A stretch of 4,229 nt of DNA, from IMG/VR virus record IMGVR_UViG_2713896898_000007. One strand, written 5' to 3'. The notes below the pieces were generated by a model, which did not search any database, was not told where the DNA came from, and was given only the letters and a program-made list of their open reading frames with translations. The DNA comes from a virus (lineage: Duplodnaviria > Heunggongvirae > Uroviricota > Caudoviricetes). Every line of letters starts with the position of its first letter. The stretch's first letter is position 1. A program made the position numbers and the translations under genes. Shown one piece after another: positions 1-3,391 of this stretch.

Positions 1-660
1 TTTTGTGCGCTGCTTCAGTATGCTGGTGGCGGTCTGCTCTCCCGGTACGATGTCGCTTTCACGGTACATTGAGCGGATTTTTTCCGCACGCAACCCCAGC
101 GAACGACGTAATACCGCTTCCGGTAGCGCGTCCGCCACCTGATTGCGGACCGCCCACCAGGATAATTCAGCCAGAGATAATTCACGCTCCTGCGTACCGC
201 TTATTGCGTGACCGATGGCGTCAATCATCCATGCTGACAGGTTTTGATGAGCAAGTTGCTCGAGTGATTCGGATGTCTGGTCACGCAGCTGGTTGTCGCA
301 GTGCCAGCACAACACCATTGCGCCGGTACCATAACGGTGAATGACGGTTTCGCTGTGATGATAATCGCCGTGTGGCCACTGGCAGGATTTAATATGGCGC
401 AACAGCCAGTCAGACAATGCACCAGCACCACCAGCAGCACGAATCACCCGTGCGTTACTGAAAAACGGCAGCAATGTTTTGTCTTCCACCAGCGGCTGGC
501 GAACGGCAGGAACGACCCCGGACGGCAGATTACGCATGCTTTTCGGTTCCGGCTCCACCAATACCCGGGTATTGTGGAATACCGGCATGGATTCACGGCC
601 CGGCTTAACGATCACCAGCCCGAGTTCCGGTACCAGAACAGGTCGAAGTAATACCCGCAC
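1..660 (-). CDS. Hypothetical prophage protein, 3'-truncated at the window edge (at least 220 aa); possibly YdfU/DUF968-like by position, unverified
   Basis: I translated the reverse complement of 660..1 by hand: 220 codons with no stop, beginning VRVLLRPVLVPELGLVIVKPGRESMPVFHNTRVLVEPEPKSMRNLPSGVV... and containing CQWPHGDYHHSETVIHRYGTGAMVLCWHCDNQ. Candidate start is GTG at 660..658, one nt after the TAA of the upstream ORF, with GGAGG four nt upstream; an alternative ATG is at 588..586. The plus-strand ORFs 3..344, 301..651 and 479..808 overlap it and look like shadow ORFs of GC-rich coding DNA. Family assignment is a guess from synteny with hok. Confidence 0.6.
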   Translation of the reverse strand, partial: MRVLLRPVLVPELGLVIVKPGRESMPVFHNTRVLVEPEPKSMRNLPSGVVPAVRQPLVEDKTLLPFFSNARVIRAAGGAGALSDWLLRHIKSCQWPHGDYHHSETVIHRYGTGAMVLCWHCDNQLRDQTSESLEQLAHQNLSAWMIDAIGHAISGTQERELSLAELSWWAVRNQVADALPEAVLRRSLGLRAEKIRSMYRESDIVPGEQTATSILKQRTK

Positions 661-661
661 G

Positions 662-940
662 TTACCTCCAGATGCGTTGCTGGAATGTGCGAGACGGACG
701 CGGTGGGCGTTCAGAGTAAGGAAGCCTGACGGAGATTATCCAGTGACGATAATCGAGGCTGAGGGCTTTCTTAATCTCGTATCCGTGTCTGCGGTAGCAC
801 TGAATTAGCCACTCGGCCTGTTCTTCAGTGCATGGGTCATGCTGGAACCAGTCAGATTTGAAAGTGCGGGAACGCCGCCCGTGCCTGCTGGCAAAGACGG
901 CAGAATCATCAGAATTGTGTAATTTGGTATCGTGCGCCAT
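662..940 (-). CDS. Hypothetical small protein (92 aa, MAHDTKLHNSDDSAVFASRHGRRSRTFKSDWFQHDPCTEEQAEWLIQCYRRHGYEIKKALSLDYRHW...); position matches rem downstream of hokD in K-12 Qin, unverified
   Basis: The track ORF 662..1069 (135 aa) would have to begin inside the intrinsic terminator at 1008..1039, so I place the start at the internal ATG 940..938. Stop is TAA at 664..662, followed by C then GTG of the next ORF (coupled arrangement). No strong SD before the ATG; no family recognised. Confidence 0.4.
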   Translation of the reverse strand: MAHDTKLHNSDDSAVFASRHGRRSRTFKSDWFQHDPCTEEQAEWLIQCYRRHGYEIKKALSLDYRHWIISVRLPYSERPPRPSRTFQQRIWR

Positions 941-1007
941 CGGTTGTCTCTGCTGGCGCAGCAGGTGCCAGTTGTTCAGGCTGGCGTGCGAATTGTAAAC
1001 CAGAATG

Positions 1008-1039
1008 CCAGGAAAAAACAAAACCCGCCGAAGCGGGTT
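1008..1039 (-). terminator. Rho-independent terminator downstream of hok
   Basis: Minus-strand sequence reads AACCCGC-TTCG-GCGGGTT followed by TTTTGTTTTTT: a 7-bp GC-rich stem with a UUCG tetraloop and a U-tract, about 70 nt after the hok stop codon. Confidence 0.7.
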
Positions 1040-1107
1040 AAGTGCGGGTGCGTTGAGGATGCCTGACACATCAGAGGTGGCGAGGGATTTCTCCCCCGCC
1101 TGGTCTC

Positions 1108-1263
1108 TTACTCCTCAGGTTCGTAAGCTGTGAAGACAGCGACCTCCGTCTGGCCGGTTCGGATTCGTACCTCGCAGAGGTCTTTCCTCGTTACCAGTGC
1201 CGTCACTATGACGGTTAAACAGATGACGATCAGGGCGATTAGCATCGCCTTTTGCTGCTTCAT
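1108..1263 (-). CDS. hokD: Hok/Gef-family type I toxin (51 aa small membrane peptide), HokD/RelF-like
   Basis: Hand translation of the minus strand from ATG 1263..1261 to TAA 1110..1108 gives MKQQKAMLIALIVICLTVIVTALVTRKDLCEVRIRTGQTEVAVFTAYEPEE. This has the hydrophobic N-terminal helix and the conserved TRKDLCEV...GQTEVAVFTAYE core of Hok/Gef peptides. SD AAGGAG sits 9 nt upstream of the ATG. The family call is firm; the hokD paralog assignment (rather than hokC/gef) is from memory of the C-terminal YEPEE and should be checked by alignment. The ORF is below the track's length cutoff. Confidence 0.88.
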   Translation of the reverse strand: MKQQKAMLIALIVICLTVIVTALVTRKDLCEVRIRTGQTEVAVFTAYEPEE

Positions 1264-1437
1264 AGCCTGCTTCTCCTTGACCTTTCGGTCCGTAAGAGGC
1301 TAATCTCTATGTGTCGCATAGATATGGCCTCAGATTAATGTTAAACGTCTTGCAGGACGCGTAATGTTAACTGGGGCTTTTCTCTATCTGCCTTTGGTGT
1401 TCATGCCTGAGACAGATAGCCTCAAGCACCCGCAGCC

Positions 1438-1466
1438 ATTCTACTTAACTCCCGTTACCTCGCCAA
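1438..1466 (-). promoter_or_regulatory. Candidate sigma70 promoter for the hok transcript (TTGGCG-17 nt-TAGAAT)
   Basis: On the minus strand the -35-like TTGGCG is at 1466..1461 and the -10-like TAGAAT at 1443..1438 with a 17-nt spacer. This would give a 5' leader of roughly 170 nt before the hok ATG, similar in length to leaders described for hok-family mRNAs. Motif match only. Confidence 0.3.
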
Positions 1467-1915
1467 TATGAAATCAGTCAGAAAGGCGATCCATAAGAAC
1501 AACAGCAAGGCAATAAATTGCCATTACAGCAGCAATAGCCAGCGCACATTTGAGAACCAGCACCACAACCTCCTGTATTGGACGTACACCAGTCCTGATA
1601 AATATGAGGCTGTCTCGTCAGTGATTCAATACAACTATTGGGTATAGTTTCTGTGATTTTGTTCTGTAGAAATGGAACATAATAACCAGTCACCACCAGC
1701 ACTTCTTTAAATACGCCAAGTCCGACGCAAGCTAACCTTCTAGCCCACTTTGAGCGAGAAGCAGACATTTACTTAACTGGATAGCAAGAGACTTCATATA
1801 TCATGGTTGATCCCGGAGTTTTCAATAATGGAAAGACATTGCCCGTATGATCGGGCCGTAACCACATTAGAAGCAGGTGCCCTTTGTGAATTTTGATTGT
1901 GTCAACCTATCTGTT

Positions 1916-2056: not shown

Positions 2057-3391
2057 ATGTTTAGCTTAATCATGGCCGGAGAACCGGACGTTTTTGACCG
2101 CTGGCCGTGTATGGACCCTGGGCTTAAAGAAGGCGAGGAAAGATTCTCGATGTCCCGCATGCTGGAAGGCACCCCAAGCGATATTTACAGTAAATTAACA
2201 CCAATAAGACCCGATACCTTAAGAGAACTCGCCAAGCTACCAGTATTGTTCATGACCGAAACTTATACAAAAGATGATGAATATGATACAAACAAGTACA
2301 TCAGGATCAGACTTGGGGAAATAAGAAATTTACGTAAAGATGGTGGCGATATTTTATTTTCTTTCAAGATTAATCATAATTTTGGAGAAATAACGAATCC
2401 CCAAACGACATTATATAAAGAAACCCTAGGGCTAGGATCTTTCGGGTTAAGTCGTACACATTGGGCAGTAAAAAATAAGGATTTAAATATTGTTCTGGAA
2501 TCACTTGGTTTAAACAAACAAAATAGTCACCTGAAAGGTACAATCAAATTAAAAAAACAAACATACCCAGTAGTCGAGAACATTATAGATTATCTTAATT
2601 TCATAAAGAAAAACTTTCGTGATGGTCTCATTACCTTTTATCGTGGACACTCTAAAAGCTCATATGAGCTTGTCCCCTCTCTTTACAGAAAAAATCAAAA
2701 CGGGACGTACAGGCATCTTGCTTCAGAATCTGATTTAGTACGTGAAATACTCAGCGCAAGACCAAATGAATTTAAGGAGGATAAATTTACGATTGATAAA
2801 CTTGTCCGCATGCAGCATTATGGCTTGCCTACAAGACTCTTAGATATTACATCTAACCCACTGATAGCATTATATTTTGCTTGCTGTTCGAACCCCGATG
2901 AAAACGGACAGGTGATTTCGTTTTCAACAAATAGAAAGAAAATTAAATATTTCGACTCAGATACAGTGAGCTGTATAGCAAACTTATCACTTTTATCTTA
3001 CGAAGAGTTGGAAAAATTGTCCTCCTCTGATTCCAGAAAAGGTAATATGGAGTTATCTGAACTCACTGATAAACTTGCAGACCTTATACAGAATGAAAAA
3101 TCATATTTCAGAAACAGAATAATTCCTGATGACTTAAGGAAAGTTGTTTTCCTTAAGGCTAAAATAAATAATGAACGCATACAATCTCAGGCAGGAGCTT
3201 TTCTTCTGTTCGGACTTGATCCCATTTTACCGGAAACAGATGCTGAGTTTCCTCTTAACAGAGTGGAGATAGCGAACAAAAATAAAATTCTGGAAGAGCT
3301 GGCGCAGCTTAATATATCCGAAAGCACTGTATATCCCAGCATGGAGAAAACGGCAGCAGAAATTACAAAAAAGTTTTTATCGGTATCATAA
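2057..3391 (+). CDS. FRG-domain-containing protein (444 aa) with unassigned N- and C-terminal regions; candidate horizontally acquired defense or abortive-infection gene
   Basis: An uninterrupted 1335-nt ORF in about 32% GC DNA is itself strong coding evidence, since stop codons are frequent by chance at this composition. SD AGGAG precedes ATG 2057. The translation contains FYRGHSKSSYELVPSLYR (aa 194-211, nt 2636..2689) and QHYGLPTRLLDITSNPLIALYFAC (aa 253-276, nt 2813..2884), which I recognise as the FRG-domain motifs (Pfam PF08867, a family of unknown function). The flanking ~190 and ~150 residues were not recognised. The start is ambiguous: in-frame ATG at 2150 is also possible. Confidence 0.85.
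   Translation: MFSLIMAGEPDVFDRWPCMDPGLKEGEERFSMSRMLEGTPSDIYSKLTPIRPDTLRELAKLPVLFMTETYTKDDEYDTNKYIRIRLGEIRNLRKDGGDILFSFKINHNFGEITNPQTTLYKETLGLGSFGLSRTHWAVKNKDLNIVLESLGLNKQNSHLKGTIKLKKQTYPVVENIIDYLNFIKKNFRDGLITFYRGHSKSSYELVPSLYRKNQNGTYRHLASESDLVREILSARPNEFKEDKFTIDKLVRMQHYGLPTRLLDITSNPLIALYFACCSNPDENGQVISFSTNRKKIKYFDSDTVSCIANLSLLSYEELEKLSSSDSRKGNMELSELTDKLADLIQNEKSYFRNRIIPDDLRKVVFLKAKINNERIQSQAGAFLLFGLDPILPETDAEFPLNRVEIANKNKILEELAQLNISESTVYPSMEKTAAEITKKFLSVS

Follow-up and report, generated by a model that had tools for sequence, protein, structure and literature searches.

A hok/sok module in a lambdoid prophage with a predicted short mok that ends on the hok start codon

Described hok/sok systems and the locus in the window

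The hok/sok locus is the textbook model of antisense-RNA control combined with toxin translation that depends on a leader open reading frame (ORF). We analyzed a member of this family on a stretch of 4,229 nucleotides (nt) from a Caudoviricetes virus (IMG/VR record IMGVR_UViG_2713896898_000007), referred to at its full length as the window. Our favored reading, which we hold with a probability of roughly 0.8, is that the window carries a full hok/sok module in which the toxin gene is preceded by a short mok—a leader ORF of 19 codons that ends on the hok start—with the antisense RNA Sok encoded opposite. On the sequence evidence, the locus is a complete toxin–antitoxin module rather than a fragment. 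It appears to be a real, functional-looking variant of a well-known system, for which we infer transcription and translational coupling.

Among the closest described systems, hok/mok/sok (parB) of plasmid R1 and flm of F share with the window a layout of own promoter, tac/fbi elements, anti-Shine–Dalgarno (anti-SD) box, and GAGG followed by the mok ATG. Also common to them and the window are a GAGGC/GCCUC outer stem, a hok SD that lies inside the leader ORF, and the position of the antisense promoter. They differ in the leader frame itself: The R1/F mok starts 58 nt before the hok ATG and runs for 70 codons across nearly all of hok, whereas the window has a spacing of 56 nt and 19 codons. R1 and F are also plasmid-borne, whereas the window locus lies in a prophage, and R1 Hok is only distantly similar to the window Hok; HokW, a prophage Hok that matches the window's in length, is reported to be 44% identical to R1 Hok (PMC8621323). 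As far as R1 mutagenesis is recounted in PMC9841398 (citing Thisted & Gerdes 1992), translation of mok has to proceed as far as the hok SD, and stops introduced downstream of the hok start make no difference; the same account has mok start-codon mutations or early mok stops abolishing Hok.

The hokC/mokC/sokC locus (gef) of Escherichia coli K-12 has the same leader architecture, its antisense −35 hexamer is TTGACC, as in the window, and its annotated sokC allows the ends of the window Sok to be placed. Unlike the leader ORF of the window, mokC is in frame with hokC at a spacing of 57 nt and specifies a 69-amino-acid (aa), N-terminally extended Hok; the hokC locus also differs in being flanked by IS186. 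The hokW-sokW locus of Sakai prophage Sp5 has been shown to be a type I toxin–antitoxin system that aids phage release after induction, with a SokW antisense RNA of ~71 nt complementary to the 5′ untranslated region (UTR) (PMC8621323). Known here from that publication (PMC8621323), hokW-sokW resembles the window locus in its 51-aa Hok and in its place in the nin-like region of a lambdoid prophage. Leaders annotated as MokW-type are in frame at 57 nt, as are most loci with an identical Hok, whereas the window leader has 56 nt.

Coupling of termination to reinitiation at AUGA or UGAUG is classical in operons such as trpB-trpA. There, as in the window, the upstream stop overlaps the downstream start, and the upstream ORF contains the SD of the downstream gene. 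The window differs in that its upstream ORF is a nonconserved 19-aa leader whose apparent role is only ribosome delivery and which, unlike the trpB-trpA type, would be gated by mRNA refolding and an antisense RNA.

The leader ORF and its three spacing classes

The toxin gene occupies 1108..1263 on the minus strand and encodes 51 aa plus a stop (MKQQKAMLIALIVICLTVIVTALVTRKDLCEVRIRTGQTEVAVFTAYEPEE). The product is a small hydrophobic Hok/Gef toxin by its match to Pfam PF01848, HOK_GEF (E = 1.2e-23; 82.9 bits against a cutoff of 22); it is identical to K-12 HokD, the name that PGAP gives the protein in E. coli genomes. On the same strand, the 19-codon leader ORF (MRHIEISLLRTERSRRSRL; 1260..1319) runs from an ATG at 1319 to a TGA at 1260, crossing the hok SD up to the hok AUG and sharing two bases of its UGA with that AUG, as AUGA. 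Its own SD, GAGG (1328..1331, minus strand), lies 8 nt before its ATG and is homologous to the mok SD, which in R1 is also GAGG. The hok SD, AAGGAG (1273..1278, minus strand), stands inside the leader ORF, 9 nt before the hok ATG; it is near consensus and kept in all relatives. At the level of sequence, the window has a leader ORF with its own SD that reaches the hok ribosome site.

An original prediction, made from the letters of the window without database searches, had named these features, and all of them—hok, the leader ORF, the AUGA overlap, the GAGG, a closed mok-like frame, and a TTGACC/TAATCT pair on the opposite strand—were found where it had placed them, with the GAGG, given as ~9 nt upstream of the leader ATG, lying at 1331..1328 and at an exact distance of 8 nt. 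Its statement that an intact mok is not apparent stands in part. The R1-type mok frame, one base before the hok frame, is closed by a TAG at 1309..1307, after which it has no ATG, GTG, or TTG up to a TGA at 1117..1115, two codons before the hok stop; a mok overlapping hok at length (~70 codons by the R1 definition) is not found in the window. Such overlap is not universal, as mokC of K-12 is in frame with hokC. The part that does not stand is the lack of mok itself, which is present but shortened in another frame. In the alignment with hok/sok, hokC/mokC, and hokD loci that the prediction had proposed as a check, the SD and ATG of the leader ORF line up with those of mok in the R1/F type and of K-12 mokC. 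Because the leader ORF uses this conserved SD and ATG, opposite a Sok promoter conserved in position, it is by homology a shortened mok in the third frame; the frame is another one because the spacing from mok ATG to hok ATG is 56 nt and not 57 or 58.

We compared leader spacing and frame across 53 loci from reference genomes, 80 from IMG/VR, the F-type plasmid locus with its annotated mok, and K-12 hokC/mokC/sokC. Intact leaders all share the GAGG, the spacer, and the ATG at the same place, and the distance from mok ATG to hok ATG takes one of three values: 56, 57, or 58 nt. The 57-nt class holds 44 of the 60 distinct leaders and sets mok in frame with hok, giving an N-terminally extended Hok of 68–70 aa, as in K-12 mokC and the phage "MokW." At 58 nt (9/60), the ORF overlaps hok in the R1-like frame, as in the F-type locus, where mok spans 543..755 and the hok ATG is at 601. 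Leaders with 56 nt (7/60), the window's among them, have 19 codons, the stop being the UGA within AUGA. Reading from the mok ATG, no stop intervenes before the hok SD in 60/60 distinct leaders; the shifted frames are open that far in 12/60 and 14/60. Because of this difference, we conclude from the conservation pattern that selection maintains translation between the mok start and the hok ribosome site and is indifferent to the frame that follows. By the same comparison, the leader-ORF arrangement is more than chance.

The 56-nt AUGA class occurs separately in E. coli prophage loci of hokD type, in hokC-type loci of Escherichia ruysiae and Escherichia whittamii, and in Erwinia and Kalamiella loci. 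The loop of the E. ruysiae and E. whittamii hokC-type loci is 1 nt shorter than that of K-12; compared with the nearest 58-nt leaders (L009 and L010), the hairpin loop that immediately follows the ATG is 2 nt shorter in the window. The window allele itself is widespread: At least 778 complete E. coli genome records, those of strains such as ATCC 43886 and STEC299 among them, match the 96-nt stretch 1250..1345 at 100% identity, and of the 80 IMG/VR loci whose Hok is identical, 11 carry the same leader over its 84 nt.

These counts bear on the alternative that the locus has decayed—that the change in spacing is a frameshift lesion that destroyed mok, that Hok goes untranslated, and that the 19-codon ORF and its AUGA are accidental. 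Decay would account for the closed R1-type overlapping frame and has precedents, in that several chromosomal hok loci of K-12 are inactivated and chromosomal loci failed post-segregational killing tests (bioRxiv 10.1101/2025.08.07.668861). A single open ORF also proves little, as 18 random codons are stop-free with a chance of ~0.4. It is the family that speaks against an accident: Every leader keeps an open ORF from the mok ATG, whatever its frame, versus ~20% at the other offsets, the 56-nt class arose in unrelated hok lineages, and the exact allele is fixed across the E. coli genome records and recurs in phage contigs. The other regulatory elements of the window are all intact, and the R1 mutagenesis, as described in PMC9841398, makes translation beyond the hok start dispensable. 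Because the exact leader recurs so widely in E. coli records and in IMG/VR, a one-off degenerate lesion is unlikely, and the window leader appears to be a fixed allele that is neither unique nor newly arisen. We consider a decayed locus improbable as a whole.

At these loci, PGAP annotates hokD only, without a sok RNA or mok, and phage records call the in-frame 70-aa form "MokW protein," so that the short-mok class goes unannotated. The phage records nearest to the window (~95% identity) annotate MokW or HokD at its locus. Three further loci lie on contigs of 275–2995 nt assigned to Acinetobacter idrijaensis (L016), Xanthomonas pisi (L021), and a Candidatus Scatousia metagenome-assembled genome (L054), and encode an E. 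coli-type HokD at 96–100% identity; HokD on these non-enterobacterial contigs is most likely assembly contamination.

The predicted antisense RNA and hok mRNA, and the proposed mechanism

Opposite the leader ORF, on the plus strand, a putative Sok promoter spans 1277..1306, with a −35 TTGACC (1277..1282), an 18-nt spacer, and a −10 TAATCT (1301..1306). The original prediction had proposed this pair as an antisense promoter, and the family bears it out: A promoter of the form TTGNNN, 17–18 nt, NANNNT stands at the same position in 63 of 64 distinct leaders, including the R1/F type and K-12 hokC. L009, L010, and L022 have the window hexamers unchanged, and the homologous R1/F-type promoter reads TTGCGC-17-TATCCT. 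In K-12 hokC the antisense −10 (CACTCT) is weaker still than that of the window, yet sokC is an annotated noncoding RNA that starts 7 nt after it and ends in GGGGCUUUUCUCUAU. By homology to sokC, the window would encode a Sok RNA of ~75 nt (1313..1387, plus strand) that starts at G1313 and likewise ends in GGGGCUUUUCUCUAU. This predicted RNA covers the leader ATG (1319..1317) and the GAGG (1331..1328), and over 1313..1388 it is predicted to fold into a long hairpin (−28.7 kcal/mol, z = −4.9). The predicted arrangement is that of a cis-antisense RNA, with its promoter opposite the hok SD and mok and its transcript lying across the mok SD and start.

The predicted target of Sok is the SD–AUG hairpin (1296..1331, minus strand), composed of an outer stem GAGGC/GCCUC, an inner stem UCUAUG/CAUAGA, and a 5-nt loop, CGACA. 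Single-sequence folds give this hairpin in all of 51 distinct variants, among which the window loop is the shortest. Alignment of 43 SD–AUG hairpins with MAFFT, analyzed with RNAalifold, returned only the outer stem, which is invariant in 43/43 sequences, and no covariation; the inner stem was misaligned because loop length varies. The inner stem is seen in every variant by the single-sequence folds, which are not a formal covariation test. The YUNR U-turn motif is absent from the window loop and from several relatives.

The hok mRNA has a candidate promoter of its own at 1438..1466 on the minus strand (−35 TTGGCG, 17-nt spacer, −10 TAGAAT). It is the sole sigma-70-like call of the promoter scan in 950..1550 and stops 6 nt short of the 5′ end (1431) given by the Rfam alignment. 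The Rfam match is to RF01794, a model that, despite its name "sok," describes the sense-strand leader of the hok mRNA as far as the hok AUG; the match is full-length (1–157) at 1431..1261, minus strand (104.3 bits, gathering score 59, E = 8.8e-24). Together with a predicted intrinsic terminator at 1012..1039, minus strand (scan call at 1039..1022, then a T run), this 5′ alignment delimits a predicted full-length mRNA of ~415 nt (1013..1431, minus strand).

Folded over 416 nt (1431..1016), the full-length mRNA reaches −173 kcal/mol (z = −7.4) and pairs its 5′ with its 3′ end. In the minimum-free-energy fold, the 5′-terminal tac element GGGUGCUUGAGG (1420..1431, minus strand), which aligns to the start of the Rfam model, pairs with 1058..1046, the fbi element CCUCAACGCACCC (1046..1058, minus strand), which is complementary to the mRNA 5′ end. 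The box GCCCCAG (1371..1377, minus strand), which we call ucb or anti-SD after its R1 counterpart (PMC9841398), is paired with the region of the mok SD in the same full-length form. The leader fold that the original prediction had proposed to compute thus contains both the tac/fbi pairing and a leader SD paired with GCCCCAG, an architecture of the kind that PMC9841398, in its account of R1, describes. Its broader suggestion of a variant mok/sok-like circuit gains support from the mok SD and ATG, the conserved Sok promoter, the module's own promoter, tac/fbi, and the terminator.

Sub-threshold Rfam matches to isrK, rsmX, ceN48, and sR55 were dismissed as chance or terminator-driven. The match to isrK, a Salmonella prophage-borne Hfq-binding small RNA, scores 27 bits against a gathering score of 50; it lies at 1018–1099 on the minus strand, covers the hok 3′ UTR including fbi and the terminator, and is probably terminator-driven.

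The intact leader also bears on the other outcome that the original prediction had allowed for, a degenerate locus in which hok depends on read-through, as in relBE-hokD (relF) of the K-12 Qin prophage: The gene would lack a dedicated promoter and dedicated antisense control, and its expression would depend on an operon upstream. The two loci do share an identical Hok and an identical last 14 nt before the hok ATG. In K-12, however, relE lies directly upstream, and the mok SD and ATG, the Sok promoter, and the tac leader, all present in the window, are missing. In L005, a locus of this relBE type, the region upstream of hok likewise encodes RelE, and its homology to the window is confined to the 14 nt nearest hok, whereas the window has a complete Rfam-matching leader and its own promoter; relatives have no annotated same-strand gene upstream. 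With no relE upstream, no RelE ORF anywhere in the window, and the full leader in place, we rejected relBEF-style read-through and give it next to no credence.

The favored reading, a full module with a short mok, can be set out as a mechanism that follows R1 closely. The analysis draws on homology of sequences, ORF conservation, conservation of promoter position, and predicted folds; for the window itself, transcription on both strands, processing of the 3′ end, coupling, and toxicity are what we infer. The module's own promoter would make a hok mRNA whose 5′ end (tac) pairs with its 3′ end (fbi). In this folded full-length form, the upstream GCCCCAG box would sequester the leader SD, so that ribosomes and Sok would both be barred. 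Trimming of the 3′ end would then open the leader, and ribosomes could initiate at the GAGG and ATG of the 19-codon mok homologue. Its translation would bring them over the hok SD (AAGGAG, 1278..1273) to the UGA in AUGA, and Hok would be made either by termination–reinitiation or through unfolding of the hok ribosome site. An unstable Sok, transcribed from TTGACC-18-TAATCT with a start near G1313, would pair with the leader SD–AUG hairpin and block leader translation, and hok with it, indirectly. The mechanism would depart from the R1 paradigm in one respect only: mok would stop where hok begins and not run on into it. A natural mok of this kind is consistent with the R1 mutational results. 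HokD is reported to be toxic on overexpression (bioRxiv 10.1101/2025.08.07.668861).

Hok could instead be translated directly from its own AAGGAG once the mRNA has been processed, with the leader ORF irrelevant and Sok acting mainly through degradation by RNase III. The near-consensus hok SD, 9 nt from the ATG, would allow this, and Sok/hok duplexes are RNase III substrates in R1, by the account in PMC9841398, and in hokW-sokW (PMC8621323). R1, however, has the same strong hok SD, and there mok start mutations or early stops abolish Hok, again as reported in PMC9841398; RNase III was only partly required in the hokW work (PMC8621323), and direct translation leaves the strict 60/60 open leader frame unexplained. 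We judge it very improbable.

Several observations weigh against translation of hok through a Sok-controlled short mok. The generic sigma-70/terminator scan made no call for a plus-strand Sok promoter or a Sok terminator. The promoter goes uncalled because its −10, TAATCT, matches only 3 of 6 consensus bases; the Sok promoter is thus a candidate supported by homology and not by consensus strength. The window loop CGACA lacks the CU-N-R start found in many relatives, which might slow Sok binding. A fold of a 3′-truncated mRNA (1431..1056), for which the processing site was guessed, gave no clear tac/ucb refolding. As R1 stop codons are described in PMC9841398, those tested lay before the hok SD and after the hok start, none exactly on the hok AUG. 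Finally, the negative post-segregational killing results with chromosomal hok loci tested earlier, summarized in bioRxiv 10.1101/2025.08.07.668861, count here as well.

Loop variability, genomic setting, and meaning for the family

Variation along the module was compared over 69 distinct regions, drawn from 80 loci whose Hok is 100% identical. Column entropy reaches its maximum at window positions 1300..1329, the SD–AUG hairpin loop and Sok 5′ end, with 0.64–0.70 bits per column. The remaining 10-nt bins of the mRNA are mostly ≤0.3 bits, with 0.33–0.46 at 1340..1369 and at the 5′ end and nearly zero in the hok coding region. The loci compared for this hotspot were L055–L134 and L002–L012. The pattern suggests diversifying selection on Sok/hok recognition specificity at 1300–1329; the recognition loop may diversify in a way that perhaps keeps the Sok RNAs of co-resident copies specific. 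Loop indels would switch the mok frame without cost because the frame beyond the hok start is immaterial.

A wider and more tentative proposal, which we hold at somewhat less than even odds, is that the mok frame is evolutionarily free. The three classes would switch by indels of 1–2 nt in the SD–AUG loop and the adjacent hairpin, and the loop itself would be hypervariable under diversifying selection for Sok/hok recognition specificity, which would spare several nearly identical hok/sok copies within a genome from cross-talk. The short mok would then be a "minimal mok," making neither a Mok protein nor an extended Hok and working by pure termination–reinitiation. As a separate observation, the genome CP178302.1 carries several loci with the same Hok and different loops.

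The genes around the module are prophage genes, by Pfam search and by the annotation of relatives. One flank holds DUF968, followed in relatives by RusA and Q; the other holds an FRG-domain gene and DUF977. Because its neighbors are of prophage type, the module is placed, by gene content, in the nin-like region of a lambdoid prophage. Directly beside it, at 2057–3391 on the plus strand, the FRG-domain protein of 444 aa (Pfam PF08867, E = 2.5e-22) matches the PADLOC candidate antiphage defense family PDC-S15 (E = 3.5e-99). Its gene lies inside a low-GC island (GC 0.33–0.42 versus ~0.55 in the flanks) and is probably a prophage moron or defense gene. Between the hok promoter and this gene is a 96-aa ORF with a Cys-rich C terminus (1478–1768, minus strand); it has no Pfam match, relatives carry no annotation at that place, and it is probably not a gene. 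The closest full-length relatives (e.g., E. coli XDL, 97% identity) have an additional hypothetical gene of 393 nt, missing from the window, between hok and the 92-aa ORF (window ~940–1108 versus 2441–3272 of L137).

Full-text searches found no description of a mok class terminated at AUGA, although Pedersen & Gerdes 1999, Steif & Meyer 2012, and Gultyaev et al. 2000 may already note it; a 2026 preprint on Hok diversity left out the analysis of Mok as "not trivial." The short-mok class is a recurrent but ordinary variant, which agrees with the current understanding of hok/sok and overturns none of it. For annotation, pipelines that seek a Mok of ~70 codons or an in-frame "MokW" will miss or mislabel it. 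For the biology of the family, a widespread allele in which mok stops at the hok start amounts to an evolutionary replicate of the mutational result of 1992 and 2022, that translation as far as the hok ribosome site is all that matters. The consequence we draw is that the peptide sequence of Mok has no function. If the hypervariability of the Sok-target loop is confirmed, it would offer a way to approach how many near-identical hok/sok copies coexist in one genome without cross-regulation.

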